DNA of 52,749 bases from Patiriisocius sp. (GCA_047624725.1 JBLHQB010000002.1:1-52749); one strand, 5' to 3'. Shown: positions 2,781 to 52,502, counted from the first letter of the stretch. Notes: generated from the letters alone by a model not told the origin. Numbers and translations are program-made.

Positions 2781-3356
2781 CTACGCCTTACTTACTCGTT
2801 CTGAGTACTGACCAGACTCGGTATTAATTGCGATCACGTCACCTTGGTTAATGAACATGGGTGCGAATACGACGTATCCGGTTTCCAGTGTTACTTCTTT
2901 TTTAGCGTCGCTGCTACTGTTGCCTTTAACTGCGTCCATTGCTTCAGTTACTTTTAGCTCCACCTTGATAGGGGTACTGACGCTCATGATGTCGTCGTTG
3001 AATACGATTGCTTCAACGATACTGTTTTCTACTACGTAGTTACCGAGTGCTCCTACGACTTCTTCGCCGAAGCTAAATCGGTCACCAGGGTTGGTAGGAG
3101 GGCAGAAGAAGTACTCTCCTTTGTTTGAGTACAGAAACTTTACATCTCTCTTTTCAATGTATGCCTCTTCAAGCACATCAGCTTGGTGGAATGTGCGGTC
3201 GACTACGCCACCAGTACGGAGGTTCTTCATCTTCACTGCGTTACTGGCTTTCTGTCGATCTTTCTTAGAGATGCTTGAGGTGAGTACAAGAAAGGGATCG
3301 TTGTCCATGATCACGGTTCGCTTTGGGAGTATTTGGTTGTATTCAACTTTAGCCAT
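2781..3356 (-). CDS. efp: Elongation factor P
   Basis: 191 aa with EF-P motifs (KMKNLRTGGVVDRTF...VKFLYSNKGEYFF...VELKVTEA...KEVTLETG). A bidirectional terminator lies at 2740-2769. Confidence 0.92.
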   Translation of the reverse strand: MAKVEYNQILPKRTVIMDNDPFLVLTSSISKKDRQKASNAVKMKNLRTGGVVDRTFHQADVLEEAYIEKRDVKFLYSNKGEYFFCPPTNPGDRFSFGEEVVGALGNYVVENSIVEAIVFNDDIMSVSTPIKVELKVTEAMDAVKGNSSSDAKKEVTLETGYVVFAPMFINQGDVIAINTESGQYSERVSKA

Positions 3357-10399: not shown

Positions 10400-12313
10400 A
10401 TGACTACAGTTGCAAATACATTTGCTTCAAAGCTAGCAGTAGCTTTCGTTGCAATCGCAATGATGTTCTCACTAGTTGCACCTGCACAGGCGCAAACTGC
10501 TGAAGAACTTCAAACACAGATTGATACGCTTATGGCGACAATCACAGCACTACAAGCACAGCTTGGAGTGGACGACTCTGCACCTGCTGCAATGTCAGCA
10601 GACGCATACGTATTTACACGATCACTTTCTGACGGTTCAGAAGGTGCTGACGTAACTGCGCTACAGACGTACCTTATTGGAGCTGGATTTTCAATCCCAG
10701 CTGGAGCTACTGGGTACTACGGTGCACAGACAACAGCTGCAGTTGCTGCATGGCAGGCTGCAAACGGTGTTGCACCAGCAGTTGGATTCTTTGGTCCTGT
10801 TTCACAGGCTAAGTACAACATGATGATGGCAACAATGGTTGAAGAGGAAGAAGAGGAAGCTGAAGAATCAGAAGAAGCTGAAGAATCAGAAGAATCTACA
10901 GACCTTGGAAACGATGAAGGTTCTATCGAATCAGTTGATGAAGTATCAGCTGACGAATCTACTCTAGATGAAGGTGAAAATGCAGGAGTACTTGCATTCG
11001 AACTAGAAATCGAAGGTGATGTAGAAATCAACCGAATGGACTTCTTTGCTGAAGAAACAGGAGGTGCTACAGATACTGATGCTGATGACTTCTTCGAAGG
11101 AGCGTCACTATGGGTTGACGGCGACAAAGTTGCTGACCTTGATGTTTCAGACTTCGATGATGATGACGCACCATACTCAAACAGTGCTATCACTGAAGAT
11201 TACGATTACCGTTTACGATTCTCAGGTCTTGACCTAGTATTCGCAGACAGTGACGAACCAGAGTTTGAAATCGCATTTGAAGTTGTTACTTCTCTTGATT
11301 CAGACAGTGTAACTAACGGAGCATGGGATGTAGAGCTTGGAAGTATCCGATCTGTTGACGGTGAAGGATTCACTGATTCTCTAGATGCAGACGATACTAT
11401 CGAAGAAACATTCTCATTTGACGATGAAGAATCTGCTGAACTTGATATCTCAGACACTTCTGACAATCCAGATGCTACAACGCTAAAGATTGAAGAAGAT
11501 GACGACGAATCAGACGAATTCAACGTATTCATCTTCGAGATTGAAGAAGAAAACGGAGTTGACGTTGAGATCGAAGACATGCAGTTCCTTATCACTACAA
11601 CAGGTTCAACAACTGAATCAGACGTAGTTGAAGAAGCTATCCTATACCAAGGTTCTACTGAACTCTCTTCTGAGTCAGTACCAAACGGAGGTGTAGTAGT
11701 ATTCGAAAACCTAGGAATTGAACTTGACGCTGACGCTACTGAAGAGTTCACAATCGCTCTTATCTTTAAGGGTGAAGAAGATCACGGAAATAGTTCAGAC
11801 GTTACAGTAACTTTCGTATCTATTGACGATGCTGAAGATGCTAACGGAAACGACGAGGGTGAAATGAGTATCACTGGTACTCCATCATCAGAAACACACG
11901 CACTACGAACTGTAGTACCTGATGTATCTGATACTTCATTCTCAGTTGACAAGGCTGAAGATGACCAATCTGGAACAATCTCATTCGAATTCACAATTGG
12001 TGCTGAAGACGATGACTTTGACTTCGCAGTTGCATCTAAGAGCGCAGTTGACGGACTAGTTGACGATATCCGATTCACAACTTCTGGAGCTAGTACTACA
12101 CTTGGTGTAGCTGCTATCACTAAGGTTTCTGGAGATGCTACATCTACAGGTGCTGGATGGACTATCGCTGACGGTGAAGACGCTACATTCGTTATGGATG
12201 TAACATTCACTACAGTTTCATCTGCAGATGACGGTACATACCGTGTAACTGTTGAGACAGTTGGTGGAATCGAGATCGATGACACATCTGACGGAATGAG
12301 TATTTCTAACTAG
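10400..12313 (+). CDS. Secreted, extremely acidic cell-surface protein with a peptidoglycan-binding (PG_binding_1-like) domain
   Basis: Signal peptide ...VAPAQAQT, a coiled segment, and GADVTALQTYLIGAGF...GYYGAQTTAAVAAWQAANGV (PGB motif). A ~470-aa Asp/Glu-rich region follows. The gene has a 700-nt untranslated upstream region and is followed by two strong hairpins, the first with a T-run. Confidence 0.7.
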   Translation: MTTVANTFASKLAVAFVAIAMMFSLVAPAQAQTAEELQTQIDTLMATITALQAQLGVDDSAPAAMSADAYVFTRSLSDGSEGADVTALQTYLIGAGFSIPAGATGYYGAQTTAAVAAWQAANGVAPAVGFFGPVSQAKYNMMMATMVEEEEEEAEESEEAEESEESTDLGNDEGSIESVDEVSADESTLDEGENAGVLAFELEIEGDVEINRMDFFAEETGGATDTDADDFFEGASLWVDGDKVADLDVSDFDDDDAPYSNSAITEDYDYRLRFSGLDLVFADSDEPEFEIAFEVVTSLDSDSVTNGAWDVELGSIRSVDGEGFTDSLDADDTIEETFSFDDEESAELDISDTSDNPDATTLKIEEDDDESDEFNVFIFEIEEENGVDVEIEDMQFLITTTGSTTESDVVEEAILYQGSTELSSESVPNGGVVVFENLGIELDADATEEFTIALIFKGEEDHGNSSDVTVTFVSIDDAEDANGNDEGEMSITGTPSSETHALRTVVPDVSDTSFSVDKAEDDQSGTISFEFTIGAEDDDFDFAVASKSAVDGLVDDIRFTTSGASTTLGVAAITKVSGDATSTGAGWTIADGEDATFVMDVTFTTVSSADDGTYRVTVETVGGIEIDDTSDGMSISN

Positions 12314-18645: not shown

Positions 18646-19348
18646 ATCGCCTACGTGTTTAGGAATGACTGCTAAACGAGTCGGGAAGAGCAAGAAGATT
18701 CACTTGAATTTTCAACCTCATCTAATGATTCTTTTAGGTCACAGTCATTCTAAAGAAACTCGCGATCGTTGACATCGTGAATAACTACTGAGGTCGATCC
18801 ATCTAGGATTGGACGGCCTCAGCTCAAAGTCCTACCATGGTCGACGCCTGGTAGGCAGGTTCGCATTGATTCCGTTACTCGTTATACAATGCGAACAAAA
18901 AGGTAGTTTGTTGGGTTAAGACAACAACGTTAGCTTAGCCGCTAACAGGGTCTTTTCGTCCCCAACAAACAATCATAGTTATGAGAAGTGCTGTATGGAA
19001 TTGCAGTAACCTTGTAACGCACATACCGAGTTTCAAAAAGTTAGTATTTATTCTTTTTGAAACAAATTTTCCTCAGAGCGTAGATGCTCTGAGGGATACA
19101 CTCAAATTAAATTGTACAGTGGTGTACAGCATTCCCTATGGGAATGAAGGGTGTATGGTGGATGCCTAGGCTTTACAGAGCGATGAAAGACGTGAAATGG
19201 CTGCGATAAGTTTCGACGAGGTGCCAATTAACCTTCGACTCGGAAATTTCTGAATGGGGAAACCCTACTACTCTTAGTAGTAACCTGCGTATGCAGGAGC
19301 GCACCCAGGGAAGTGAAACATCTCAGTACCTGGAGGAATAGAAAGCAA

Positions 19349-19434
19349 TATATGGAACTTTCGTTCTGGATTACACTATTTTGAATTTATTCAAAATGCC
19401 ATTGTATTCAGGACGAAGGTTCTTGCGATTCCCT
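19349..19434 (+). other. ~85-nt hairpin expansion segment in 23S domain I
   Basis: Inserted between GAAAGCAA and GCGATTCCCTTAGTAGCGGCGAGCG, relative to E. coli AAATCAACCGAGATTCC. It folds as one long imperfect helix: GGAACTTTCGTTCTGGATTAC.../...GTATTCAGGACGAAGGTTC. Confidence 0.6.
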
Positions 19435-19435
19435 T

Positions 19436-19470
<35 letters not shown>

Positions 19471-19694
19471 TACGTATTTATATGTGTGGGGTTGTAGGGC
19501 GGAGTTTGCATTTAGTTGCAGAGAGTTACAAATTGTATAGATAGCAAAACAAGCTGGGAAGCTTGACCCTAGTGGGTAATAGTCCCGTATGCGAAATTTA
19601 TACGACTCTCTTGATTCCGTTCCTGAGTAGTCCGAGACATGAATAGCTCGGATGAATCTGCGAGCACTAACTCGTAAGGCTAAATATTTGTAAA

Positions 19695-19740
<46 letters not shown>

Positions 19741-20301
19741 GGAGAGGGGAGTGAAATAGATCTGAAACCATACATCTACAAGGAGTTGGAGACCTGCGGG
19801 TCGACAGCGTGCCTATTGAAGAATGAGCCGGCGAGTGTACCTTTATCCTTTGTCTAAGTGGTAACCCCACGGAGGCGCAGTGAAAGCGAGCGTGAATAGC
19901 GCGACTATAGGGTAGGGGTACGACCCGAAACGGGATGAGCTTGCCATGAGCAGGGTGAAGCGGAGGTAAAACTCCGTGGAGGCCCGAACCGGTTGACCGT
20001 ACAAAATCATCGGATGACTTGTGGTAAGGAGTGAAAAGCTTATCGAATTCCGTAATAGCTGGTTCTCTCCGAAACAGCTTTTGGGTTGGCGTCGCGTGGT
20101 CCCTCTGGGGGTAGAGCACTGGAAAGAAAGAACAGGGTGAAAACTCGTCTTTCTTATCAAACTCCGAATACCAGCAGGTTATAGCGCGGCAGTTAGACTA
20201 TGGGGGAGAAGCTCCATTGGTCGAAAGGGAAACAGCCCAGATCGTCAGTTAAGGTCCCTAAATATATACTCAGTGCCAAATAAGGAGGTGAGGATTCACC
20301 A

Positions 20302-20336
<35 letters not shown>

Positions 20337-21188
20337 TAAAGATAGCGTAACAGCTCACTGGTCGAGAGTCCTTGCGCCGCAAATGAACGGGGCTCAAGTA
20401 TATTACCGAAACTACGGATTCGCATCTTCTTCGGAAGGTGTGAGTGGTAGGAGAGCATTCCATTCTGCAATGAAGCCAAGGCGAGAGCCGCGGTGGAGCG
20501 TATGGAAGAGAGAATGCCGGCACAAGTAACCGCAAGACGGGTGAGAACCCCGTCCGCCGAAATACCAAGGTTTCCTGGGCTATGTTGATCAGCCCAGGGT
20601 TAGTCGGTCCTAAGCAGATCCCGAACGGGGGATGCGATGGATAGCAGGTTAATATTCCTGCACACAGATTTCGTTCCGATGGAGGGACGGAGTGTTGTAC
20701 TTATAGCATCTTATTGGATTGGTGCTGGAGTGCTGAGGAGGTTAGATAGGCAAATCCGTCTAACAATACTCCGAGGTAAGTCTGAATGCAAAGCTACGGC
20801 TGAGCAAATATAGGGAGCACACTTCCGAGAAAAACTTCTAAGGTAGTACGCGATCTGTTCCGTACCCCAAACCGACACAGGTGGTAGAGTCGAGAAGACT
20901 AAGGCGAACGAGTGAGAGGTCCTTAAGGAACTCGGCAAAAAAGCGATCGTAACTTCGGGATAAGATCTGCCCACATACCTTCGGGTATCAGTGGGCCGCA
21001 GCGAAAGATTTCCTGGCGACTGTTTACCAAAAACACAGCTCCCTGCGAACACGTAAGTGGATGTATAGGGGGTGACGCCTGACCAATGCCGGAAGGTTAA
21101 ATACGGGGGGTGAAATGAACTTCGGTTTGTTTTGCTGGACTGTATAAGCCCCGGTCAATGTCAGCGATAACTATAATCGTTCTAAGGT

Positions 21189-21417
21189 AGAGCGCGTTTC
21201 CACTTCGGTGGAAGTACGCTCTACGGACTGGAACGATTGTAGATGTAAACAGCCCGAGCCATAGTTACCTTGCGTCCTAGTAATAGGCGCATAGTCCAAA
21301 CTAAACCAACAAGAGACCAAATGTTTAGCATCCGATCCTGAGCAATCAGAAGGATGAAGATAGAGTCCTGTTGTGCACGTATCAGTAAAGGCTGATACAT
21401 AAAAGAAGGAAAAATAG
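21189..21417 (+). mobile_element. ~229-nt ORF-less insertion at the E. coli U1931-equivalent site (probable compact group I intron)
   Basis: Splits CTAAGGT | AGCGTATTTCCTTGTCGGGTAAGTTCCGAC. The 5' exon ends in T and the insert ends in G. The border is ambiguous by 1-2 nt because of an AG repeat. Confidence 0.5.
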
Positions 21418-22077
21418 AGCGTATTTCCTTGTCGGGTAAGTTCCGACGTGCACGAATGGCGTAACGACCGGGAAACTGTCTCAAGGACCTGCTCGGTGAA
21501 AATACAATCCCGGTAAAGATGCCGGGTACCTGCAGTTAGACGAAAAGACCCCAGGAGCTTTACTGTAGCTTCGTATTGGGGCTGTTGAATTTATGTGTAG
21601 CATAGTGGGGAGACTTTGAAGCGGGCTTTCGGGTACCGTGGAGTCACCAGTGAAATACCCATCTTAAATTTGGCAGTCTCTAACCTGGTAGGACAAACCT
21701 ATTAGGGACAGTGCGTGGTAGGCAGTTTTAGTGGGGCGCTACCCTCCTAAAGAGTAACGGAGGGGTCTCAAGGTCAACTAGCCGCGAATGGAAACCGTGG
21801 CGATAGTGCAATGGCATAAGTTGGCTTGACTGTAAGGCGTAGATGCCGAGCAGATACGAAAGTAGAGCATAGTGAACCGATGGTCCGCTTTAGATGCGGC
21901 CGGAGATTACCCGATAAAAGTTACCCTGGGGATAACAGGCTAGTATTGCCCAAGCGTCCATAGCGACGGCAATGTTCGGCACCTCGATGTCGGCTCGACT
22001 TATCCTGGGGCTGGAGCAGGTCCCAAGGGTTTGGCTGTTCGCCAATTAAAAAGTCACGCGAGCTGGGTTTAGACCGT

Positions 22078-22379
22078 TTAGTTTCTGATATTATCGGAAT
22101 TTAGACCGTCTAAGTCCACTCATAACGATACATAATCGAGTTTTTCAGTCTATGAAATAACGAAGGAACCAACCAAGATCACGGCGGTGCATGCTAGCAA
22201 TAGTGTGTAACAAACTAACTTATATCGGTAGAACCCTACATCATTCACTAAAATGATCGGGCAATACCGAGGGAAGTTGCAAAACGCCCGTAGAGACTAG
22301 ACGTTAGACTTCCAGCGAATCAAATCTCTCTGGAAGATGATATAGTCCGATCCTCCAAGTAATTGGAGATAACACAATG
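22078..22379 (+). mobile_element. ~302-nt ORF-less insertion at the E. coli U2593-equivalent site (probable group I intron)
   Basis: Splits GCTGGGTTTAGACCGT | CGTGAGACAGGTTGG. The 5' exon ends in T and the insert ends in G. No ORF of 60 aa or more lies inside. Confidence 0.55.
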
Positions 22380-22521
22380 CGTGAGACAGGTTGGTCTCCT
22401 ATCTACTGCAGGCGTCGATACTTGACGAGATTTGTCCCTAGTACGAGAGGACCGGGATGAACTAACCTCTGGTCTACCTGCTGTCACGCCAGTGGCACCG
22501 CAGGGTAGCTATGTTGGGAAT

Positions 22522-22554
<33 letters not shown>

Positions 22555-22930
22555 AACTTGAAGATTAGGTATCATTAAGTCTCCTGAGAGATTATCAGGT
22601 TGATAGGCACTAGGTGGAAGCGCAGCAATGTGTGCAGCCGAGGTGTACTAATAAGACGTATTTCCCATGGGGAATGTTGTACAGCTACTGAACAATTTAA
22701 TTTTGTGTAGCGGTATGTGTAAATAGTCAGTTATGGATCATCTTTGATTGTCCATAACAAAAATGAGTGTAGTTATTGACGAAATCAATTGAATATCGCG
22801 AAATGGTATTCAAACAGCATATAATCGTGTTGTTTGATCCACTTCGGGACGAGATACTTTTGTATCTTTCTAAGGTAACCCTTAGCGTCCCGACCATTTC
22901 GCGATATTCAAGACCTTTATTGAAGGTTTA

Positions 22931-30665: not shown

Positions 30666-31214
30666 CTACGTACCTGCAGGGGTAAAAGCTTGGTTGTAGT
30701 CTGCATTATCGAGATTAAGGTTTGAGCCCGAACAGGTGTCCTTGCGATATGCTCCGCCAGATTCTCCGTGATTGAAACCAAAAGTGACACCTGTGGGGTA
30801 GGTGTTCGCTGCATTATCGCAGATACTTCCATCGATCATGTGTTGCGGATCGTATGCATAAAAGTAGAGAGCACCTGCATCAGGAGTTGCTCCTGCCCCA
30901 CCATCGTGCTTAGGGTCACTCGGTGCTGCAATGTATGGAGCCAACGCAGTGTCGATTTCGTTACCGACGCCAATCATTTGCCCAGTTAAGGGAATTCCAT
31001 CGGTAGCTCCTGGGTACCTACCGTGGTCGGAATAAAAAATCTCTAGGGCTTGTCGAATTTTGACCATGTCTGAGTGCCGAATTGCATCAAATGCTTTGTC
31101 TCGTGCGCTACTAAGACTCGCGAGGGTCACTGAGGAAAGAACACCAATGATTGATATGACAACCAACAGTTCAATGAGCGTAAATCCTCTGGTTGATGGT
31201 TTTGGATTAGTCAT
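30666..31214 (-). CDS. Type IV pilin / pseudopilin
   Basis: Class III signal peptide and N-methylation site KPSTRG|FTLIELLVVISIIGVL. Confidence 0.88.
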   Translation of the reverse strand: MTNPKPSTRGFTLIELLVVISIIGVLSSVTLASLSSARDKAFDAIRHSDMVKIRQALEIFYSDHGRYPGATDGIPLTGQMIGVGNEIDTALAPYIAAPSDPKHDGGAGATPDAGALYFYAYDPQHMIDGSICDNAANTYPTGVTFGFNHGESGGAYRKDTCSGSNLNLDNADYNQAFTPAGT

Positions 31215-36219: not shown

Positions 36220-36257
36220 AAAAAATCTATGTATCATATATGATACATAGATTTTTT
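36220..36257. terminator. 26-bp perfect palindrome flanked by A6/T6 (bidirectional terminator; palindrome copy 1)
   Basis: AAAAAA-TCTATGTATCATATATGATACATAGA-TTTTTT between convergent genes. Confidence 0.8.
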
Positions 36258-36271
36258 AATGTTGTGGTTAA

Positions 36272-36673
36272 TTATTTCTTGGATTTGAGGGAAAATAGCT
36301 CTTCTACTAATGAGAAAAGTAGGAAGTGACTTGGATATGCACGCTTGAGGTGTTTGTAGGTCAGTGGTTGCAAAGGAGTGAATGTGCTTGGTGTAGGGGA
36401 CTCTTTTGGCAAATGAGCTGAATTGTAAGTAGTGAATTCTGTTTCTAGCCAGCGTTTTATCTGGGTGAATGTGTTTGGGCTGACGCTGAGGTGGTTGTTT
36501 ATTTCGTAGCGTGTCTTTCCTTCTAGAATTGCTTGCGCGATTAGTATGCGCCGGCCGAGCATTATCTTTTCTTTTGTGGTCAGTAGATTAACTAGCGATG
36601 ATTCACTTGTGTTTGTGTTGGCCTGATTGAAGGCTTTTAGGGCCAGTGTGTTGCTGTCTTTTGGCGTGGTCAT
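36272..36673 (-). CDS. TrpR-like (YerC/YecD family) DNA-binding protein
   Basis: LLTTKEKIMLGRRILIAQAILEGKTRYEINNHLSVSPNTFTQIKRWLE follows the Trp-repressor-family pattern: LLT..E...L..R..I...L..G.sY.eI....g.S..Ti.R...L. Confidence 0.6.
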   Translation of the reverse strand: MTTPKDSNTLALKAFNQANTNTSESSLVNLLTTKEKIMLGRRILIAQAILEGKTRYEINNHLSVSPNTFTQIKRWLETEFTTYNSAHLPKESPTPSTFTPLQPLTYKHLKRAYPSHFLLFSLVEELFSLKSKK

Positions 36674-36700
36674 CTATGTATCATATATGATACATAGATG
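36671..36700. promoter_or_regulatory. 30-bp perfect palindrome overlapping the TrpR-like start codon (palindrome copy 2; candidate operator / translational hairpin)
   Basis: CATCTATGTATCATATATGATACATAGATG. The leftmost CAT is the complement of the ATG of 36272..36673. There is no flanking T-run. Confidence 0.6.
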
Positions 36701-37933: not shown

Positions 37934-37971
37934 AAAAAATCTATGTATCATATATGATACATAGATTTTTT
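37934..37971. terminator. 26-bp perfect palindrome flanked by A6/T6 (bidirectional terminator; palindrome copy 3)
   Basis: Identical 38-mer to 36220-36257, located between convergent genes 37442..37858 and pyrH. Confidence 0.8.
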
Positions 37972-37981
37972 GTTTGTTTTG

Positions 37982-38677
37982 TTAGTTGTGGATCTTTGTT
38001 CCGGTGAATGGTTTTCCGTCGAGGTAGTTTTTTAGGGAGAGTAGTTTTGTGCCGTTGAGTGACGCTACTTCGATGTTCTTTGCTTGTGCTTCTTTGGCGG
38101 CAACAGGGTCGAAAGGGGAGTTGAGTCCTGGTCCCCATTCTTTGGGGATGAGCTTTCGGAATGCTTCCCAGGTGATGTCTTCGATCTTTTCTGCGTCTGG
38201 GTTTGTCTTGGGGTCGGCGGTGTATACGTAGTCGATGTTTGAAAGGTTGATTACTTTCTTTGCTCCTACGCGTTCTGCAATCTGGATTGCGCGCAGGTCG
38301 GTGCTGGCTCCTGGTCGGTAGCCTGCGGCGATGATGAGCTTTGCACTTTCTGGCATATCAAGTACATCGTCGGGGTTGGTGACCATCACGCGGTGGGCGA
38401 GTTCACGGAAGATGGTCAGTAGGAGGTGGCCGTTCAGGCGCGTTGCGTGGAGTCCTAGCCAGTCGAGGTCCTCGTTTTCAAGCGTCGCTACTTCTCCTGC
38501 TGCTTCCTGGTAATTGCGGGCTGTGCGTCCTCCTCCGGCTATGATAATAAAACGACGGCCATTGGCCGTTTCGGTTTCGATGAGGTCTTTTAATGATGAT
38601 AGAAAGTGTGTATCAATGGCATCGGGAACAATAAGCGACCCACCTACTGACATTACGATTGTTTCTTGTTGTGACAT
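37982..38677 (-). CDS. pyrH: UMP kinase, archaeal-type (short form)
   Basis: VMSVGGSLIVPD..., IIIAGGGRTARNY and an amino-acid-kinase fold at ~230 aa, as in archaeal PyrH. Confidence 0.75.
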   Translation of the reverse strand: MSQQETIVMSVGGSLIVPDAIDTHFLSSLKDLIETETANGRRFIIIAGGGRTARNYQEAAGEVATLENEDLDWLGLHATRLNGHLLLTIFRELAHRVMVTNPDDVLDMPESAKLIIAAGYRPGASTDLRAIQIAERVGAKKVINLSNIDYVYTADPKTNPDAEKIEDITWEAFRKLIPKEWGPGLNSPFDPVAAKEAQAKNIEVASLNGTKLLSLKNYLDGKPFTGTKIHN

Positions 38678-38997
38678 GGTATGTGTATTGTATCAGAGTC
38701 TTTATTGATACTCCAAAGAATGGGTGACAGTACTGTTTATTACGCATGGTATATAGTGGAGATACATACTATGGTTATAAAGTATAGACATGCTCATATT
38801 TATTGAAATATTACAGCCCTTAAAATAAGGCTTAAATTGATCTAAAATATCGATAAAGTGTTACATCACACGTATAACGATATGACAAGTTGCACGATTC
38901 TAAATCCAGTGTATATTTCTCCGCACATTCCATGAGGGATGCGCACACGGCTTTCAGTCGTATTCTGTTCTTTACAAAACCTCGAAAGGGTAAACTT

Positions 38998-39528
38998 ATG
39001 ACCAAAAATTTTTTGATCACACTCGCAGCTGTTTCAGCAATGGCTTTTGGTTCCGCGGCCTACGCGCAGCAGACCACAAGCTACGACACATCAGGCGGCG
39101 GCGAGATCGAATGGGAATTCGAATTCGACGAAACAGAAGTTGAGACAGTTAATGCTGGCACTGACTACAGCTTCGGCGGTGGTGCAGGCACAAGCGGTGA
39201 CGTAAGCTTCGAAGCTGGTGATTATGCTCTCGTGGGCGCGATCGCCGCACAAGAAGCTGGCGGTTCTGGTAATGCGTATTCCAACACCAACGGTGGTGGT
39301 TTTGCAGAATCTGAATTCGAATCTGCGTCCTACGCTGCAAACGGCGGCCTGGGCTATGATGAAACCTTTGGTAACAATCCTGCCGAGGTTTCATTCGAGG
39401 GTGTCGTGACTGCTGGTGGTGCCGGTTCGGCAATCACTGGTGTGGTCAACGGATCTGAATACTCCTACGACCAAACTGCCGAAGGCAGCTTTTCCTACGA
39501 ATACAATAACGAAACGACAACCAACTAA
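38998..39528 (+). CDS. Secreted Gly/Ser/Glu-rich protein (island gene 1)
   Basis: Signal peptide MTKNFLITLAAVSAMAFGSAAYA|QQ with an upstream AAGGG. I prefer the ATG at 38998 to the long track ORF start. Confidence 0.6.
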   Translation: MTKNFLITLAAVSAMAFGSAAYAQQTTSYDTSGGGEIEWEFEFDETEVETVNAGTDYSFGGGAGTSGDVSFEAGDYALVGAIAAQEAGGSGNAYSNTNGGGFAESEFESASYAANGGLGYDETFGNNPAEVSFEGVVTAGGAGSAITGVVNGSEYSYDQTAEGSFSYEYNNETTTN

Positions 39529-39660
39529 TCCAACTGGATTGACTGTTTGTCAGAAGGGCTGCTCATTGAGTGGCCCTTTTTTCTTGCTATGTGTCAAGTA
39601 GTATGGTATAAAGCCTTCAGGATGAATAGTCCTTACACATGAAATGAAAGAGGGATTAAG

Positions 39661-40083
39661 ATGAACATTGTAACTAAATTCTTAGGGGTGCCACTGTTGC
39701 TGCTGGTTCAGGCATGTACAACGCCGCAGATTGCCGAAAGTCATCAGCACATAACTGCCGACCGCAGTCACTGGGCCGTCCAAATTTCTATGCACAGTGG
39801 TGTGCAGGGAACACCAACGCAAACAGTGATGGTGGTCTACAACAAATTTCAACGTGCACCGATTGCAACGATCAACGGGCAAACAAAAATTTTCTCGGAC
39901 AAGTTGGTTGATGCCTTCTTGGCACTTGGTCCTGCAATCGTACACGGCGAGTATGCGATTCAGGCCGCTGAGATCAATTGTCCACAGGGCACTTTGTGTG
40001 GAACCTTGGTTCAGGTAAGTAACCAGTCAGGGTCAAATGCGAATGCTGGTGCATCGGCGGGTACGCCCCTCCAGGGCAGCTAG
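39661..40083 (+). CDS. Putative lipoprotein (island gene 2)
   Basis: Lipobox-like LLLVQA|C, an upstream GAGGG, and a TGGTATAAA extended -10-like box at 39604-39612. Confidence 0.6.
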   Translation: MNIVTKFLGVPLLLLVQACTTPQIAESHQHITADRSHWAVQISMHSGVQGTPTQTVMVVYNKFQRAPIATINGQTKIFSDKLVDAFLALGPAIVHGEYAIQAAEINCPQGTLCGTLVQVSNQSGSNANAGASAGTPLQGS

Positions 40084-40332
40084 CCTATACAATTATAGTG
40101 TGACTAATGCGTCATACTAAAAAGCGAGAGGACACATGTCCCCTCGCTTTTTCTATTGCTTGACAGATCATATAATCGTGCTATCTTTCCCTCATCTTCG
40201 CGGAGGAAATAGTAGGGCCATCGGGTGCCTATAAAATCTTCTTCGATTGTGGCGCACGCCCTAATATTCACTTTGTGAGATATTAGCATTCAGAGCATGA
40301 CGCTTTGATATAACAATCGATAGGAAACGAAG

Positions 40333-40743
40333 ATGAAAAAATTTGTTCTTACAGCGACCGCAGTGCTTCTTCTGACAACAGGTATCGCAGCAGCTGATGA
40401 CTATGGCTATGGTGACTTCACCCCGTCATACGAAACTGCAGCTGACGCCTATGCGTCGGGCAGCAATCTGGGTATCAATGAAATCATCGAAGGGTATGGA
40501 GAAATTCATACTGAAGCGATGACCATGAACCAGACTGATGCTTGGGTTATCGAGTCCCTTCTGGGAGACGGTACACCAGGTAACGAGGTTGCGTCGTATG
40601 AGGTTGGGACCTTTGCATCTGCATGGGAAACATACGAATCGGGCGTACATGCCCAAAGTGACCGCCTGACCATTGTCAGCGGGATCTCTGAGCAAAGCTC
40701 ACGAGTCAAATCAATCATCAACCGCGCACAAAGCGGCATGTAA
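40333..40743 (+). CDS. Secreted acidic protein (island gene 3)
   Basis: Signal peptide MKKFVLTATAVLLLTTGIAAA|DD. The C-terminus is ...AQSGM. Confidence 0.6.
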   Translation: MKKFVLTATAVLLLTTGIAAADDYGYGDFTPSYETAADAYASGSNLGINEIIEGYGEIHTEAMTMNQTDAWVIESLLGDGTPGNEVASYEVGTFASAWETYESGVHAQSDRLTIVSGISEQSSRVKSIINRAQSGM

Positions 40744-41146
40744 CCAAATCACGAAGGCAGGGAATCTTTCCCTGCCTTCTATCTGTATAAATACTTGCTA
40801 AAATAGCATAAATGTGGTATAAAACACACGGCTAAAAAGTCGCTTGGGTAGAGCCTGGCGGCGAATGTGATCTTTGAAAATCAATATATTCTAATCATGT
40901 TCTAGAGATTGCATTGCGTTGCTACTATGTAACGCCTCAATTTCTATTTTGCTTTTAATTGTACACTGCGCACTTGTGCGTTTGTTTGATTAAAACTCTA
41001 AGCGTAGGCACCGTATTCATCTTGCCCTCACCGGCACCTCACTCGTCTCCCTTTTTCTTTTGAATTTGTGTGACCGTGAGGATGAGTACTACTTGTCCGC
41101 GTCACACGTCTGGTATTCCAGGCATTCATCTTGAAAAGGAGACGTT

Positions 41147-41758
41147 ATGAAACGTTCAGCTACAGCTACACTCGCACTTTTGGGACTTCTGTCTGTTAGT
41201 GCATGCGCTACCTCGTCTGGTACAGGGCCCGTTGCGGGAATTTCTCGCGACGCCTTTGCAGCTGCTCCGGCAGCCGAACAGAACACCATGGCAAACACTA
41301 TGCGCACACGAATCCATGGCGGTGATCGGTTTGACCAAATTGCCTTAATGGCAGGCCAAACGGTTACTGCAGGTTCGGGAAGGAATCAGATCACGATGAC
41401 CTGCCTTAAGGGCGTGTTGTCTATCAGTGTTGCCCAGTCGGCTAATGCGAATGTTCGTGCCATGTCCGGTGCGTACATTACACACGCCGACTATCACTGC
41501 AACGAAGTCGAAGGCGCGCTTATGCTCGCTAAGATTGAAGGCAGTGATCACATAGGTAAGCTGATTACCGCTGGTATCTTCCGTACAGCAGGACTCGTTG
41601 GTCAAGGTGCCGCTGCTGCAAGTATCCGCAGTGGCGGATCTGCTGTTCCAGCAACCGTGATCACGAACTTGGTTCAAGGCGGAGAAAGTGTTGCCATTGC
41701 TGATCAGCAAAGCATCACAACATCCGACTCGTCTTCACTTATTCAATCTGGTATGTAA
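41147..41758 (+). CDS. Putative lipoprotein (island gene 4)
   Basis: Lipobox LLSVSA|C, SD AAGGAG, and C-terminus ...IQSGM. Confidence 0.65.
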   Translation: MKRSATATLALLGLLSVSACATSSGTGPVAGISRDAFAAAPAAEQNTMANTMRTRIHGGDRFDQIALMAGQTVTAGSGRNQITMTCLKGVLSISVAQSANANVRAMSGAYITHADYHCNEVEGALMLAKIEGSDHIGKLITAGIFRTAGLVGQGAAAASIRSGGSAVPATVITNLVQGGESVAIADQQSITTSDSSSLIQSGM

Positions 41759-41770
41759 GGAGATACGACA

Positions 41771-42433
41771 ATGAAACGCATCATCATACTTCTCACATTC
41801 ATCTTTTGTGTGCAAACAGCTTCGGCGTTTGAATACTCAGAAGAAATTCATACACGCGCTCCTGAGGAATCAGGAGTGCCACAATGGATTGTCGCTACGG
41901 TAGAAAGGGGAGACACGGTCCAATCAGTATGTCATCGGTTACGTCATGTAATTGTTGGTGTCTATGGAGGTACTCACGCTGCAGCCACGCAAGGTTGTCT
42001 GCGGGGAGTCTTAAGCCAGAACCGTGAACGCTTCGCAAATATGCGCAGTCTCAATCGTATCAATGTAGGGGAGGAGGTTTTGCTTCCAGATCCTACCATT
42101 GTAATGAATGAGGTCGCTGCACAGATGCGTGCACGCAAAGCGTTGTTTGGTCTGGCAGAAAATCCGTTGGCGCATGTGACAGCAACCATTGCCAACACCA
42201 AAGCAATTGCTGAGGTACAAGAGGATCTTGCAGACCGTCCATCACGATCAGAAGTAACCACAGAGGTTACTGCTGCAATTGAGGATGCAGACTTTGTTAC
42301 CGACGAACAACTACAGGCTTCGCTTGGAGATACAGACTTCGTTACGCAGGAAGAACTTCAGGTTTCACTTGCAGCAATTCCTTCCGACGGTGGTCTGATG
42401 TTTTCAAGTTTAACGTGCACTGTTAATGAGTAG
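41771..42433 (+). CDS. Secreted protein with LysM-like segment and tandem acidic repeat (island gene 5)
   Basis: Signal peptide ...CVQTASA|FE, then VERGDTVQSV...NRINVGEEVLLP (LysM-like), then DADFVTDEQLQASLG / DTDFVTQEELQVSLA. The SD is AAGGAG. Confidence 0.6.
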   Translation: MKRIIILLTFIFCVQTASAFEYSEEIHTRAPEESGVPQWIVATVERGDTVQSVCHRLRHVIVGVYGGTHAAATQGCLRGVLSQNRERFANMRSLNRINVGEEVLLPDPTIVMNEVAAQMRARKALFGLAENPLAHVTATIANTKAIAEVQEDLADRPSRSEVTTEVTAAIEDADFVTDEQLQASLGDTDFVTQEELQVSLAAIPSDGGLMFSSLTCTVNE

Positions 42434-42640
42434 GATATATTGATCTACTAATATAGATGGCCCCAGGTCATCAAAGCTCCGTTTGTATATACAGGCGGGG
42501 TTTTTCTTTTGTGTGAATGTAGCAGTTTCGTTGGAACTGTTGACTTATTCCTATAAATATGTTATAAATACTCTTGAAATCGGGTCCAGTGAGGGCTCGA
42601 TATTTTGCATCGTATAGCACGATTTGACAGGAGAAATACC

Positions 42641-43768
42641 ATGGATATCAATACACCACTTGTAGAGCAGTTCGCGGCACCATTTTTGGGACCTTTTGGG
42701 GTATACCAAAAGCCGTTACCAAAATCATATCTTGGTGATGTGGAAATCACACAAAATTTCACGGGGTGGGATTTTACCCGGTTCCACGTATCTGACATTT
42801 CAGTATTTGCTGACAATGTCGACGTCGTGGGTGGCAACATCGACGACTACTATGATCGCGGAAGTAATACCAATGGACGCTTTGCTTCGGCTGACGAAGT
42901 GACGATCCAAGGATGGGGTAGTAAAAATACCTTCACTGCTGTCTATGACAATGCTGATCTGGGTGGTGTTTTCAACACCACTTCGATTCTCTTTGCATAC
43001 GACGATGTTCGTCAGGATGGGTATTACAATACTACCCACATTACGTTCGCGTTTGACGACATTGAAATCGGCGGCTTCGGTAACACAGTTTCCACTGGCT
43101 GGAATGATGACTATGTCACTTTGGAAGAAGGTGGCAACACGGTCTTCACCGGCCATGGCGAGGACGAAGTTGAAGGTTCTGGCGGTAATGATGAAATTCA
43201 TGCTGGCAGTGGCGACGACTTCGTTTTTGCTAACGCTGGCGATGATACTGTCTACGCTGGAAACGGTGATGATGATATTTATGGCAACGATGGCAATGAC
43301 TACCTTGAGGGTGGTGATGGCAACGATGACATTCACGGTGGAAATGGCAACGATGTGATTCTCGGCGGAAACGACGACGATCATCTCGGTGGTGGCAACG
43401 GTGACGATATCATGGGCGGCGGCGCAGGTAATGATTACTTGCATGGCGGCAATGGCAACGACACGCTGGTTGACGGCGATGGGTCAGACTATCTCTCTGG
43501 TGGCAACGGCGCAGACACCTTCTTGTTTGTTCAAGATGGCGAAAGTGACACTGGTTCATTGGGTTGGGGCGACAACGAAGCTGATCTTGTACTTGTACAA
43601 GGTGTGGGCACTGGTAGCGGTGACCTAACTCTGTACGGTGTTGGTACCGAGGACTCTGTTCTTGGCTTTACCGAAAGTGGTCACGAGATTGATCTCGGGG
43701 CATTGGCTCTTGCATCAGAAGGCTCGTTTACCATCGGTACCGATTACTTCGATATCAATTTTGCCTAA
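42641..43768 (+). CDS. RTX-type (hemolysin-type) calcium-binding repeat protein (island gene 6)
   Basis: About 15 consecutive GGxGxDxxx nonapeptides (GSGGNDEIHAGSGDDFVFANAGDDTVYAGNGDDDIYGNDGNDYLEGGDGNDDIHGGNGND...). There is no N-terminal signal peptide. SD AGGAG precedes the ATG at 42641. Confidence 0.8.
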   Translation: MDINTPLVEQFAAPFLGPFGVYQKPLPKSYLGDVEITQNFTGWDFTRFHVSDISVFADNVDVVGGNIDDYYDRGSNTNGRFASADEVTIQGWGSKNTFTAVYDNADLGGVFNTTSILFAYDDVRQDGYYNTTHITFAFDDIEIGGFGNTVSTGWNDDYVTLEEGGNTVFTGHGEDEVEGSGGNDEIHAGSGDDFVFANAGDDTVYAGNGDDDIYGNDGNDYLEGGDGNDDIHGGNGNDVILGGNDDDHLGGGNGDDIMGGGAGNDYLHGGNGNDTLVDGDGSDYLSGGNGADTFLFVQDGESDTGSLGWGDNEADLVLVQGVGTGSGDLTLYGVGTEDSVLGFTESGHEIDLGALALASEGSFTIGTDYFDINFA

Positions 43769-43981
43769 GTTCTCTTAAAGAAAGGTGTGGGCGCGCAATG
43801 TGCGCCCATACAACCCCGATAAAACTTTTACGTTTTATCGGGGTTTTATTTTATATTTTAAGTAATGGGATACTTAGTAAAAAATAGACGATCTTTAGAG
43901 AAGAGAGTACGTATTGGTGTACATACTCTATTACGTAATTGCCTTGTTTTAGGCCCTTTAAACATAAGTCACAAAGAGTGC

Positions 43982-44009
43982 TTGCATTAATTTTCATTGT
44001 CTGTATAAT
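43982..44009 (+). promoter_or_regulatory. Probable sigma-70 promoter of the 16S rRNA transcription unit
   Basis: TTGCAT (43982-43987), a 16-nt spacer, then TATAAT (44004-44009). It lies ~440 nt upstream of the mature 16S 5' end. Confidence 0.55.
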
Positions 44010-44451
44010 AGCGGACACTGTGTGACTGATAACGATGTTTTGAACATCCAGACTCAGAAGACATACAGTACTTTGACAATATTAAATACGTTGATCGATC
44101 GTTACGAGACGGTCGATCAGAATATACTAGTTGCAATGGTAGCGGCGTACTTTTGTACGTTTCATTGCAGCTGTATGCATCACCTTTCTTGTTGCATTAC
44201 GAACGTAACAAGAAAGAATAGCAAGACAAAAGATTTCCACCGTTTCAGTTTTTCCTTCATTGGAATGATTGCGACATCAATCTAAATACGAAGCTTTGCT
44301 TTGTACGACATTGAATTTTCTTTTGTCTTATCCTTTGGATGTCTAAATTAGTACGCGACATGAAGTACACGCGGAAATACATTTAGACGCAGGTAAGCAC
44401 ATTGCGATCTAGAAATGATTTATCATTTTTATTTCACTGAGCTACCTGTCT

Positions 44452-45910
<1,459 letters not shown>

Positions 45911-46400
45911 TGGACACGTCGTTGACCAGGGGTGACCCAAAATCAATAACGACTAATTGGTCGATGTTATGTGTCTCAATTGAGCACATAATTGGTAATA
46001 ATACTCAACAACCATAACTGGTATTTGACACTAGGAAAAGACTAGGAAAAAGGATAAGACAAAAGAGGATAGAAATCTCTTTTGCATGATGCAAAACGTA
46101 TTTAATATTGAAGAGGTATAAAAACCACAGTCTCTTAGACTGTGGTTTTTATATGTTTAAAGTCAGTGTATGCTGCCTGTTGGTTCAACTGCATGTGTTG
46201 ATGGACTTGATGCAGGTCCAGGACTAAGGTTGACTATAAATGTTTCAGTACAAGTCGTTGCTTAGAGCGTCTTCGTGTACAGGCACCTTATTTTGCTGTG
46301 CCAAAGTTACCCGTTAACAGGTAGATGACACTTAAAGCTAGGTATAAGAAAAGGACGGTCTGAATTAGACCGTCCTTTTCTGTGAGTATGGCGCTACTCT

Positions 46401-47735
46401 CTAAAATGAATTACAAAATGTATCAGCATCAACTGAGTATTGCACATTTACTCCTGTATCAGATTGCTGAGCATTACTTAGGGCCAACACATCTTCTGGA
46501 GTAAGTGAGGCAAGCGTCTGGCCATTAACATTTGCGAAGTGCTCCTGATAAACACTTGGAGTACGTGCCGAGCTACCGTACGTATCTAGTTCAGAACTCC
46601 GCTGTGAGGCCTCTACAGTAGCCAGTGCAGCGTATGTTTCAATAATAGGAAGTGATGCACGGGTTATGTTTGTATATGGGCAGGTGTCGCTGCCTTGTGT
46701 GTATTCCCAGATACCGCTCCAATCAACCACTGCGTACGAAATATCAGTTCTGTCATACGTACACACTGCAGTGAGGTCAGCAGCACTGGGTCCTTGGCCT
46801 TCTGTATTTAGTTGCAGATTTTCTGAACGAGCTTGCGGGTGGGTGTTAATGATGTGCACGTCAGTAACATTTGTTGCAAGCAGTAGATCTAAGACATCCT
46901 CATCATATGAAATATGGTTTGCGCTACTCAGGTCAGTAATATTTTGCCAGTGAGTAGCACCAACATTGTCTTTATATAGCACATATGCAGCTTGTACCGT
47001 CTCTACGCGGTTTGCGAACTGCAGGGTCTGCATGCCACTTTCGCAGGTCGCATTGGTAGATATGTTTGGTACCGTGTACTGCGCACGAGGCTCTCCGGCG
47101 TAGGTTGTAAATGCCGCGCTGTCTCTACCTGTGCCAAAGATAAGATCCGCGATACTAAGTCCTGTCGTATCAGATCCAGATCCCGAATTCCCACCAGAAC
47201 CTGTTGATCCTGAGTTCCCGTTGTTTGTATTGCTTCCAGACCCTGAACTCCCGCTAGACCCTCCTGTTGTATTTGTACCCGGTGGCCCGTAGTTAGGATG
47301 GTTAGTTCCTTCAGGAAAAGATCCCCCCGAGAAGGATCCTCGACTATTGTTGCCACATAATCCATCTAAGTAATCAGGACACAACGAATCATCAGAATCT
47401 ATACCGACACCCTGTACAATAATATTTACAATACCCCATATCGTCAAAAGAAGCACAAAAGCAGCAATCCCATAAAACGCACTACGCTTTGCTTTGTCTC
47501 GGTCACTCTCATTTGCTCCGCCGATAATAAAGTATCGGACGATATTGATCATGAAGAAGAGGAACGCAATCCCAAAGAAGAAGGGAAGGAGGATGTGATT
47601 GATGAAGAGGCTTACGGTAACCAGTAGTTCTTGTGCAGTACTCCCTTGTGCAAAGGTAATAAAAGGAAGTAAAAAGAGTATCCCGGTTAGTAGTGAATAC
47701 TTTTTGTACGAGTTGCGCGTATAGATGTTTTTCAT
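46401..47735 (-). CDS. T4SS-pilin-like (VirB2/TrbC-type two-helix) N-terminal domain fused to a Gly/Ser linker and a ~250-aa C-terminal domain
   Basis: Signal peptide ...PFITFAQG, then LLPFFFGIAFLFFMINIVRYFIIGGANESDRDKAKRSAFYGIAAFVLLLTIWGIVNIIV. This follows the helix - GG..(s)..KAK - helix pattern of Gram-positive/CPR T4SS pilins. The ATG at 47735 follows TATTAT-N6. Confidence 0.55.
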   Translation of the reverse strand: MKNIYTRNSYKKYSLLTGILFLLPFITFAQGSTAQELLVTVSLFINHILLPFFFGIAFLFFMINIVRYFIIGGANESDRDKAKRSAFYGIAAFVLLLTIWGIVNIIVQGVGIDSDDSLCPDYLDGLCGNNSRGSFSGGSFPEGTNHPNYGPPGTNTTGGSSGSSGSGSNTNNGNSGSTGSGGNSGSGSDTTGLSIADLIFGTGRDSAAFTTYAGEPRAQYTVPNISTNATCESGMQTLQFANRVETVQAAYVLYKDNVGATHWQNITDLSSANHISYDEDVLDLLLATNVTDVHIINTHPQARSENLQLNTEGQGPSAADLTAVCTYDRTDISYAVVDWSGIWEYTQGSDTCPYTNITRASLPIIETYAALATVEASQRSSELDTYGSSARTPSVYQEHFANVNGQTLASLTPEDVLALSNAQQSDTGVNVQYSVDADTFCNSF

Positions 47736-47887
47736 ATCACTATAATACCGCACTGTACCTATATACTGTGTAATCTAAACCCCATATTGACAAAGATGGA
47801 TTATTGTGTATAATATTGAGCAGTGAAAAGGGAATGATCCCAGAAAATAGTTGTCATAGAACGACATGAACATTTGAGGTATAAAAA

Positions 47888-48331: not shown

Positions 48332-48404
48332 GCGGCTGTAGCTCAGTTGGTAGAGCAGTCGCCTGATACGCGAAAGGTCCTAAGTTCAAATCTTAGCAGC
48401 CGCA
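48332..48404 (+). tRNA. tRNA-Ile (anticodon GAT), CCA not encoded
   Basis: Cloverleaf read by hand: acceptor GCGGCTG/CAGCCGC, D arm GCTC-AGTTGGTA-GAGC, anticodon arm GTCGC-CTGATAC-GCGAA (one G-A mismatch at 27:43), T arm CTAAG-TTCAAAT-CTTAG, discriminator A. A TGGTATAGT promoter-like box lies at 48177-48185. Confidence 0.85.
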
Positions 48405-52269: not shown

Positions 52270-52379
52270 ATCATAAGGCACTACGTTCATACGTAGTGCC
52301 TTTTATTACGATATCCGCATGTGCACTTGTAACCTTTTTAAACTATAGCGTGTATAATACTCTGACAATTACATAACAG

Positions 52380-52502
52380 TATCCAGAGTACGGGAGAGGG
52401 ATTTGACCTTTTGACCCCGTCCGCAACCTCTTGCCTAAATGGTAATAAGGTGCGACATTCAACTAAAGTATTTCTTTAGGTAGATGCATGAAACTCCTGG
52501 AT
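52380..52502 (+). promoter_or_regulatory. SAM-I (S-box) riboswitch upstream of metK, with terminator expression platform
   Basis: P1 is ATCCAGAG ... CTCCTGGAT. Conserved core: GAGAGGGA-TTTGACC-TTTTGA-CCCCGTC-CGCAACC ... GGTGCGACATTCAAC. The terminator GGATGCACCC-TCG-TGGGTGCATTTTGTATTT (52499-52526) overlaps the 3' strand of P1. Confidence 0.8.

Follow-up and report, generated by a model that had tools for sequence, protein, structure and literature searches.

A probable lineage-specific island of exported-protein genes between pyrH and the 16S rRNA promoter in Paceibacteria, with Shine-Dalgarno-like start signals

The closest described counterpart of the locus reported here is hypervariable region 2 (HVR2) of SAR11, an island for surface properties that lies between the 23S and 5S genes and for which the rRNA genes have been proposed as recombination anchors (PMC2217521). 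We analysed a stretch of 52,749 nucleotides (GCA_047624725.1, JBLHQB010000002.1:1-52749; hereafter the window), a 52.7 kb contig of Paceibacteria (Patescibacteria/Candidate Phyla Radiation, CPR) which covers only a portion of its genome, and in which six genes, P1 to P6, lie between pyrH and the promoter of the 16S rRNA gene. The two loci are alike in being variable islands of a streamlined genome, with conserved flanks that include an rRNA gene, with probable surface functions, and with contents that differ between close relatives. HVR2 is 48 kb long, consists mainly of lipopolysaccharide and glycosylation enzymes and has an anomalous AT content, whereas the island described here measures 0.3-8 kb, encodes small secreted proteins and lipoproteins of unknown fold, is native in composition and has a translation-signal class of its own. 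On balance, we favour the view that a clade of Paceibacteria carries, in the spacer from pyrH to the 16S promoter, a hypervariable island of exported-protein genes particular to that lineage, and that the six genes are the form it takes in this genome. A hypervariable surface island beside an rRNA gene is a known kind of locus; what is unusual is the presence of conserved Shine-Dalgarno (SD)-type signals in a lineage without the canonical anti-SD.

The rRNA side of this phenomenon has been described for a subgroup of Parcubacteria, in which only 48% retain CCTCCT and SD helices are presumed not to form; that study reports neither a subset of genes retaining SD-like motifs nor a leaderless signature (Tsurumaki et al. 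2022, PMC9297842). In the literature on SD together with Patescibacteria or Parcubacteria we found no report of an SD-bearing gene subset or partition. Bacteroidia offer a second comparison: their ribosomes are reported to be SD-blind, with a very few SD-bearing genes (rpsU, prfB) serving special regulation (PMC7797042, PMC9976891, PMC13000453). Both cases combine a genome without SD overall with a small and specific set of genes with strong SDs. In Bacteroidia the canonical anti-SD is reported to be kept but sequestered, whereas here the anti-SD sequence itself is changed, the default is apparently leaderless, and the SD set is a surface-protein island as opposed to ribosome-related genes.

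The six open reading frames (ORFs) are all on the plus strand, and the start positions proposed for them in the earlier note (38998, 39661, 40333, 41147, 41771 and 42641) are all correct, that of P1 being backed by the N-termini of its homologues. Core genes elsewhere in the window include those for ribosomal proteins, secD/secF, folD, murC/murD and a SEDS protein. The features of the island and its flanks are listed here; the hairpins at 40119 and 40753 and the promoters at 40795, 42540 and 43982 were read directly from the DNA.

37982..38677, minus strand: pyrH (uridine monophosphate kinase; PF00696 AA_kinase), the conserved left flank, transcribed away from the island.
38998..39528, plus strand: P1, 176 aa, putative signal peptide AYA-QQ; SD-like AAGGG 7 nt before the ATG.
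39552..39580, plus strand: terminator-like hairpin and T run after P1, 13 pairs, 6 GC.
39661..40083, plus strand: P2, 140 aa, lipoprotein LLLLVQA-C; SD-like GAGGG 6 nt before the ATG.
40119..40153, plus strand: GC-rich, near-perfect hairpin after P2, with A and T runs each side.
40333..40743, plus strand: P3, 136 aa, putative signal peptide AAA-DD, acidic; SD-like AGGAA 6 nt before the ATG.
40753..40779, plus strand: hairpin after P3, GAAGGCAGGGA-atct-TTCCCTGCCTTC, without a T run.
40795..40823, plus strand: promoter-like TTGCTA-17 nt-TATAAA before P4.
41147..41758, plus strand: P4, 203 aa, lipoprotein LLSVSA-C; SD AAGGAG 5 nt before the ATG.
41753..41773, plus strand: overlap of the P4 stop and the P5 SD, GGT ATG TAA GGAG ATACGACA ATG.
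41771..42433, plus strand: P5, 220 aa, putative signal peptide ASA-FE.
42473..42504, plus strand: terminator-like hairpin and T run after P5, 14 pairs.
42540..42568, plus strand: promoter-like TTGACT-17 nt-TATAAA for P6.
42641..43768, plus strand: P6, 375 aa, RTX protein, no signal peptide; SD AGGAG 7 nt before the ATG.
43788..43845, plus strand: two hairpins in succession after P6, the second followed by a T run and terminator-like.
43982..44009, plus strand: 16S promoter TTGCAT-16 nt-TATAAT, the conserved right border of the island.
44451..45910, plus strand: 16S rRNA gene, a stand-alone unit (Rfam RF00177, model positions 1-1533).

The position of the island is fixed across related genomes and its content is not. 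Using pyrH as the query (493 relatives, 94% identity in the closest genomes), we obtained 80 loci from Patescibacteria metagenome-assembled genomes; individual loci and contigs are given L numbers below. In 42 related loci pyrH and 16S are divergent neighbours, separated by a gap of 272-8073 nt. Short gaps are found mostly in more distant relatives (16S identity 78-83%), and long gaps in the clade at no less than 89% 16S identity. The 16S promoter that forms the right border is conserved in L005, L006, L012, L084 and L087. Even at 97-99% 16S identity the content of the gap differs while the flanks stay conserved, as four close relatives illustrate:

L005, 16S 98.6%: a 2.0 kb gap with one unrelated gene of 299 aa.
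L004, pyrH 94%: a 1.1 kb gap with an ORF of 104 aa.
L084, 16S 97.7%: a P6 homologue in the island.
L006, 16S 96.5%: three other signal-peptide genes, one of them for an outer-membrane protein (OMP) beta-barrel (PF13505, E 5e-17).

The six genes are absent from the closest genomes, L004 and L005 (pyrH 94%), and different genes are found in L006. About ten further genomes carry a common set, made up of A (a membrane protein), B (a small signal-peptide protein), C (a signal-peptide protein of ~240 aa), D (a lipoprotein), E (a signal-peptide protein of 385-500 aa with a coiled coil) and often a type IV pilin. In six loci (L017, L018, L013, L029, L024 and L091) a type IV pilin-like gene with an N_methyl motif is the last of the island, before 16S; a similar pilin gene is present in the window at 30666-31214 on the minus strand, 8 kb away and outside the island. 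The OMP gene of L006 (7878-8519, minus strand) encodes 213 aa with a signal peptide and ends in ...VHQF like classical OMPs. This CPR genome is assumed to lack an outer membrane. The gene may stem from a diderm, or its product may target the membrane of a host. When the P1, P3 and B families were compared with this barrel, the signal peptides alone aligned.

Five of the six genes (P1, P2, P4, P5 and P6) have, as judged by homology, relatives at the same place in other genomes. Homologues of P1 lie directly beside pyrH in L007 and L025 (37-38% identity) and are followed there, in the same order, by homologues of P2 (45-50%); among the related loci P1 and P2 were found in these two only. For P6, a full-length homologue (P0002, 58% identity) is located directly upstream of 16S in L084, and all other matches are to the repeats only. 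P4 belongs to family D, which we define from the related loci: its members are lipoproteins 160-236 aa long, rich in Gly and Ala in the C-terminal half, whose genes lie in the pyrH-16S gap directly upstream of the last large signal-peptide gene. P4 is a divergent member of the long form (hhalign 78.7%, E 1.7e-5, residues 10-185), and in L091 it also matches the fragment of a gene that precedes the P5 homologue (BLASTP E 1e-9). Islands of this kind surround the homologues of P5 whose context was read (L086, L087) or which were newly found (L091). L086 has the order C, D, P5-like gene and L091 the order D-like, P5-like, pilin; the P4-P5 pair recurs in both. In L087, where the synteny from folD, secD and secF through pyrH to 16S is that of the window, folD-secD-secF-kinase-pyrH is followed by six plus-strand genes for signal-peptide proteins and lipoproteins, the last of them P5-like, and then by 16S. 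P5 and family E share no N-domain match and are linked weakly through the coiled-coil and transmembrane half of P0126.

These families are also very small. Searched as a single query against 5.8 billion proteins, P4 found only itself, and the family D profile found seven proteins including P4, of which the two named ones are from Kaiserbacteria and Pacebacteria. P5 has four homologues among 1.84 billion representatives; in a metagenome scan P5 alone gave no match, and an alignment of three sequences gave one locus, L091. Those members of the P4/D and P5 families which have a readable context or a name are of Paceibacteria-type contigs, and a few have neither. The earlier note had read the module as recently acquired and perhaps derived from a host. 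Homologues in place, together with families found almost only in the lineage, argue against a recent host origin of the module as a whole. P3 is the sole one of the six without a homologue: none was detected in the 80 related genome loci, in viral contigs or in plasmids, it matches none of the island families, and its 90% cluster has two members, both of this strain population.

The start signals of the island set it apart from the rest of the genome. The purine-rich motifs noted earlier ahead of each ATG are present as quoted, 5-8 nt upstream, that of P1 being weak (AAGGG only), and the core genes do mostly lack them: GGAG, GAGG or AGGA occurs at -20..-4 in five of the six module genes and in 7 of 35 other genes of the window (Fisher p=0.005). 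In the window, the mean duplex energy with a canonical anti-SD is -6.6 kcal/mol for the module and -2.4 for the others (p=0.006). When the window was pooled with L087 and 21 of the loci, giving 23 genomes, the same motifs preceded 40/53 island genes with signal-peptide-like N-termini as against 8.5-14% of non-island genes, non-island signal-peptide genes included. The contrast is independent of upstream spacer length (73% versus 10%, p=3e-13). The core of the island motif is AGGA (32/53), with G next in 21 genes and A in 15; the motif is spaced 5-10 nt before the start, with a G peak of 0.72 at position -10.

The motifs are also conserved. AGGAG precedes both P6 and its homologue in L084, and the orthologues of P1 and P2 display AAGGGA, AGGAAGAG, GAGGAG and GGGGGTGAG. 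Where P4 meets P5, the stop codon runs into the SD as TAAGGAG in the window and in L086 (GGTATGTAAGGAGAATGAAGATG) and as TAGGAGG in L091 (GGGATGTAGGAGGTGAACATG), a junction which is kept although P5 is only 41-45% identical in L086 and L091, and which is predicted to be a translational-coupling junction. At the 3' end of P4 and of the D genes, the final GM-stop overlaps the SD of the next gene. The D genes end PSGM in L086 (1417-1431) and GHGM in L091 (349-363), and both P4 (41744-41758) and P3 (40729-40743) end QSGM. P3 has no following gene, and its C-terminus may be the remnant of a D-type 3' end.

The 16S tail to which such motifs would pair is altered. Its 3' end (45897-45910) is GGAUUAAUUCCAAU where GGAUCACCUCCUUA is usual, CCUCC being replaced by AUUCC. 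Every close relative has this altered tail (L005, L006, L012, L019, L022, L026, L033, L037, L039 and L044), and more distant relatives have the variants AUCCAA, CUUCCA and AAUUCAAU. No displaced CCUCC or CACCTCCTT was found downstream of the 16S gene of the window. The purine motif of SD-led initiation is thus found in all six genes (weakly in P1), and the complementary CCUCC is missing from the organism's own 16S. GGAG and GGAA can still form four base pairs with the UUCC of the tail (mean -4.1 versus -2.2 kcal/mol).

Genes outside the island show a different pattern. Of the non-island genes, 27.5% have a -10-like hexamer (TAnnnT, agreeing with TATAAT at five or more of the six positions) whose end falls at -13..-5, compared with 1.9% of the island genes (p=5e-6). 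In the 23 pooled genomes, these non-island hexamers form a sharp peak, ending 7-10 nt before the ATG; examples in the window precede the genes at 23806, 37982-38677 (minus), 46401-47735 (minus) and 2781-3356 (minus). The second of these is pyrH, which has no SD-like motif and in which TACAAT ends 10 nt before the ATG. Because the hexamers pile up at this distance, the pattern suggests that leaderless mRNAs are the default in the lineage. T is favoured at position -1 of non-island genes (58%).

The island mRNAs, by comparison, appear to be leadered. The genes form five separate units (P1, P2, P3, P4-P5 and P6) with a hairpin after each and a T run in most, and sigma-70-like promoters are readable upstream of P2, P4 and P6; together these point to a layout of five independent, leadered transcription units. 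The promoter-like sequence at ~39584 before P2 is similar to that before P4 (TTGCTA-17-TATAAA). Use of the latter would give the P4-P5 transcript a leader of ~320 nt. The P6 leader is ~65 nt long and contains a hairpin (42579-42601); its promoter is kept in L084 as TTGACA...TATAAA, with 80% identity over 63 nt. The hairpin after P2, half of which was found on the minus strand by a terminator scan, would be able to terminate in both directions, and that after P3 was missed by the scan because it has no T run. Across the whole island, Rfam at a permissive threshold returned a single hit, a weak, sub-threshold and terminator-like ctRNA at the hairpin after P1. No gene remnants were found in the intergenic regions of the island, including 40744-41146.

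An alternative which we consider unlikely, but which survives best among the rivals, is that the purine motifs are not ribosome-binding sites at all. They might be bound by a regulator, such as a GGA-binding protein like CsrA, or be no more than unstructured A/G-rich leaders, with the island forming a co-regulated regulon. A 16S tail that cannot form the canonical SD helix would fit this explanation, as would a shared core and the confinement of the motifs to one gene set. However, their spacing is the classic one with its G peak, the stop/SD overlap is typical of coupling and kept in three genomes, the pairing with UUCC is still available, and no regulator gene was identified. A tentative possibility, to which we give somewhat more credit, is that two initiation regimes coexist in one minimal genome, split by gene class. 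In that event, either the ribosomes would read SD-like sequences non-canonically, with the help of the remaining UUCC pairing, of a protein or of a different RNA, or the motif would operate a switch dedicated to the translation of surface proteins.

The products themselves are consistent with an exported set. The earlier statement that the first five belong to no known family holds for Pfam, NCBIfam, PADLOC and PHROGs, none of which matched P1 to P5; profiles of the P4 and P5 families compared with sequences in the PDB also gave no family, P5 and family D yielding coiled-coil noise and lipoprotein signal peptides only. PADLOC and PHROGs returned 0 families for all six proteins, that is, no match to an anti-phage defence or phage module, and no paralogy among the six was detected by BLASTP or hhalign. 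Five products carry predicted export signals, two of them with a lipobox, as had been described. By inspection, the N-termini of P1 (MTKNFLITLAAVSAMAFGSAAYA-QQ), P3 (MKKFVLTATAVLLLTTGIAAA-DD) and P5 (MKRIIILLTFIFCVQTASA-FE) have AxA-type sites, and a PROSITE PS51257-type lipobox pattern matches P2 (GVPLLLLVQAC) and P4 (ALLGLLSVSAC). Homologues retain signal-peptide-like N-termini, and the lipobox Cys is kept across family D (C20, nearly invariant). P1, P3 and P5 would accordingly be expected to leave the cell via Sec, and P2 and P4 to be lipid-anchored.

P1 is very acidic (26 D+E, 1 K+R) and rich in Gly, Ser, Thr and Asn, with about five loose GGG...(S/E)(F/W)E repeats, and P2 displays a CPxGxxC motif near its C-terminus. 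For P3, Pfam gave DUF4879 below threshold only (E 0.021). The AlphaFold 2 (AF2) model of P4 was unusable, with a predicted local distance difference test (pLDDT) score of 42. P5 contains an alpha/beta domain with two conserved Cys at residues ~20-125 (AF2 pLDDT 82-93), followed by a helical tail with two DxDFVTxEELQxSL repeats. Foldseek found no fold match for the N-domain in the PDB (best E 0.8). A LysM assignment for this domain was considered and rejected, there being no Pfam LysM at E<=1 and the LysM of intimin ranking 18th in Foldseek (E 2.7, probability 0.30).

The sixth product is an RTX protein, as had been recognised. P6 matches PF00353 (E=1.2e-29, seven stretches) and has ~13 distinct GGxGxDxUx nonapeptides at residues 179-295; in the PDB it resembles the RTX blocks of CyaA (E=1.9e-24) and serralysin/PrtC (E=1.8e-9). 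The protein is very acidic (71 D+E, 7 K+R) and lacks a hydrophobic N-terminus. Its N-terminal ~170 aa contain no recognised domain type, and ~80 aa follow the repeats, ending DINFA. The C-terminal part is the best conserved with respect to L084 (80% DNA identity over 43263-43852). P6 shares its nonapeptides, the absence of an N-terminal signal peptide, its acidity and a C-terminal extension with the RTX proteins of type I systems (serralysin/PrtC, CyaA). It differs from them in having neither a catalytic nor a toxin domain and no genes nearby for an ABC transporter, membrane fusion protein or outer-membrane factor, none of which Pfam found in 26 proteins of the window, including all genes within 10 kb; it belongs to a CPR organism, presumed to have no outer membrane, and its sole full-length relative is in a sister genome. 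P6 is predicted to be a calcium-binding beta-roll protein exported by way of its C-terminus.

RTX proteins are typical of diderms, and this bears on a second alternative, which we regard as improbable: that all or most of the module came recently from a diderm, either a host or a neighbour, and has retained the SD sites and codon habits of the donor. The motifs match a canonical anti-SD that is absent from the organism, the repeat-only matches of P6 are mostly to Proteobacteria, an OMP beta-barrel gene is present in the island of L006, and the closest relatives lack the six genes. The module also has C at four-fold sites at twice the level of co-oriented genes (0.243 versus 0.119 in other plus-strand genes, p=4e-4), and local GC skew is near zero in the island. 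The codon shift toward C described in the earlier note is therefore real. It fails as a foreign signature, since the module does not differ from minus-strand genes (0.27, for example pyrH): plus-strand genes with a minus-strand level of C point to a missing strand skew and not to a foreign origin. Fast turnover of island DNA is one explanation that could account for this missing skew. The four-fold C of island genes is likewise raised in 21 relatives (0.247 versus 0.193, p=6e-5). Strand asymmetry at four-fold sites extends over the whole window, plus-strand genes having G>C and minus-strand genes C>G; ribosomal-protein and translation genes are nearly without C and G at these sites (10400-12313: C 0.01, G 0.03).

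Other measures of composition, of the kind proposed as a check in the earlier note, are native. GC is 0.45-0.50 in the island, within the range of the window, and strand-symmetrised tetranucleotide distances give z = -0.05, 0.00 and 1.48, the last being the segment with the RTX repeats. Recent transfer is further opposed by the fact that other Paceibacteria carry homologues of five of the six genes at this site, and by the tiny size of the P4/D and P5 families, whose members come from this lineage wherever a context or name is readable. SD motifs are kept in orthologues of 41-58% identity, which indicates selection and not a relic, and the same SD and codon features are found in island genes of 22 other genomes. 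No mobility genes or attachment (att) sites were found, nor any relatives of P1 or P3 in plasmids or of P3 or P5 in viral contigs. Single genes such as P6 or the OMP of L006 could nevertheless come from diderm bacteria, and patchy content among close relatives fits exchange within the clade. For the detection of islands in general, these data are a caution that third-position anomalies can stem from strand bias and gene turnover as opposed to foreign origin.

That the locus is a mobile element or prophage remnant integrated beside 16S is very improbable. Its content varies between relatives, and an imperfect direct repeat of 14-16 nt does occur exactly twice, at 38816 and 43953, as had been reported; as evidence of an insertion site this repeat was rejected, because the right copy belongs to a conserved element upstream of the 16S promoter which is also present in L006 and L084, where the island contents are different. 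No integrase, transposase or phage family was found in the island, no defence families were matched, viral contigs contain no relatives of P3 or P5, and the only tRNA in the window is at 48332. Patchy presence is thus the one mark of a horizontal island that we observed, with neither odd composition nor mobility genes, a tRNA target or att repeats.

That an assembler joined a foreign fragment between pyrH and 16S is hardly credible: rRNA genes are common points of breakage and misjoining, and the module is unlike its co-oriented genes in third-position usage and start signals, but three other assemblies reproduce the region and the same architecture with homologous genes recurs in related genomes. 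Logan contig L001 (SRR28961174), 6573 nt in length, equals positions 37942-44514 with one mismatch and runs from inside pyrH over all six genes to 64 nt into 16S, which crosses both of the junctions for which support had been sought (38.6-39.0 and 43.7-44.0 kb) in an independently assembled contig. Two JGI contigs (3300055292; L002 and L003) that overlap it cover the left junction and the middle with one and five mismatches. The island is native DNA, correctly assembled. Of the reading given in the earlier note, an uncharacterised exported or cell-surface gene set whose translation signals and strand-corrected codons are unlike those of the core has stood, and the chimera and the recent transfer of the whole module from a host have not.

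In the reading we prefer, that of a hypervariable exported-protein island particular to the lineage, the products would be part of the cell surface or coat it, and would probably serve to make contact with a host or substrate. Homologous recombination in the conserved flanks, pyrH on one side and 16S on the other, would carry new variants from strain to strain. For the leadered island mRNAs, the purine motifs would be functional ribosome-recruiting or regulatory signals, and may act via the four base pairs left with the UUCC of the tail.

Several points weigh against this reading. Signal peptides were judged by pattern and by eye only, and among the 26 window proteins scanned no genes for a type I secretion system, Lgt or LspA were seen. 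The surface or secreted function, and with it the contact with a host or substrate, is probable but indirectly assigned from sequence. Recombination between the flanks is deduced from patchy distribution. P1 is linked to the first island gene (B1) of L087 and L006 by a weak profile match (hhalign 58%, E 1e-4), and P2 to the short form of family D by one that varies with the alignment (26-77%). P3, which lacks a homologue, could be a young or spurious ORF. The reduced GC skew and the higher third-position C could mean turnover or foreign input. Finally, the (A)AGGAG consensus fits the canonical anti-SD (-6.9 kcal/mol) better than the organism's own tail (-4.1 kcal/mol).

Beyond the island, the rRNA genes of the window are unlinked: 23S-5S lie at 19.1-23.0 kb, and 16S, which has a promoter, processing stems and a terminator to itself, stands apart at 44.4 kb. 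The 16S gene is bracketed by perfect inverted repeats of 16 nt (44077-44092/46095-46110) and 18 nt (44319-44336/46049-46066), which are probably precursor processing stems, and these are followed by a 17-bp hairpin (terminator, 46117-46153). The 23S gene (19135-22673) is 3539 nt long as compared with a model of 2925 positions, corresponding to ~600 nt of insertion(s). The 450-aa product of the gene after 16S (46401-47753, minus strand) combines a T4SS_pilin domain (PF18895) with a linker rich in Gly, Ser and Asn; identity to the L084 counterpart is only 57%, as against 97.7% for 16S, and the product looks like another fast-evolving surface protein. To the left of pyrH, three copies of a perfect palindrome of 28-41 nt (core ATCTATGTATCATATATGATACATAGAT) lie between genes that are convergent or adjacent (36220-36257, 36672-36699 and 37934-37971); it could be a repeated bidirectional terminator or an element like the repetitive extragenic palindromes. 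At the right end of the window there is an S-adenosylmethionine riboswitch (RF00162, 53 bits, 52376-52490), and an unknown 150-aa gene upstream of it shares the AAGGAG motif.

Attachment to other cells is thought to be the way of life of CPR/Patescibacteria, and the proteins that make the contact are largely unknown. An island that varies between near-identical strains is a candidate list for host or substrate recognition proteins, and, being fixed in place between pyrH and the 16S promoter, it can readily be located in other genomes. The lineage also represents a natural experiment: with the anti-SD gone, the default apparently leaderless and SD-like motifs on one class of genes, it makes the function of the SD without the canonical helix testable.

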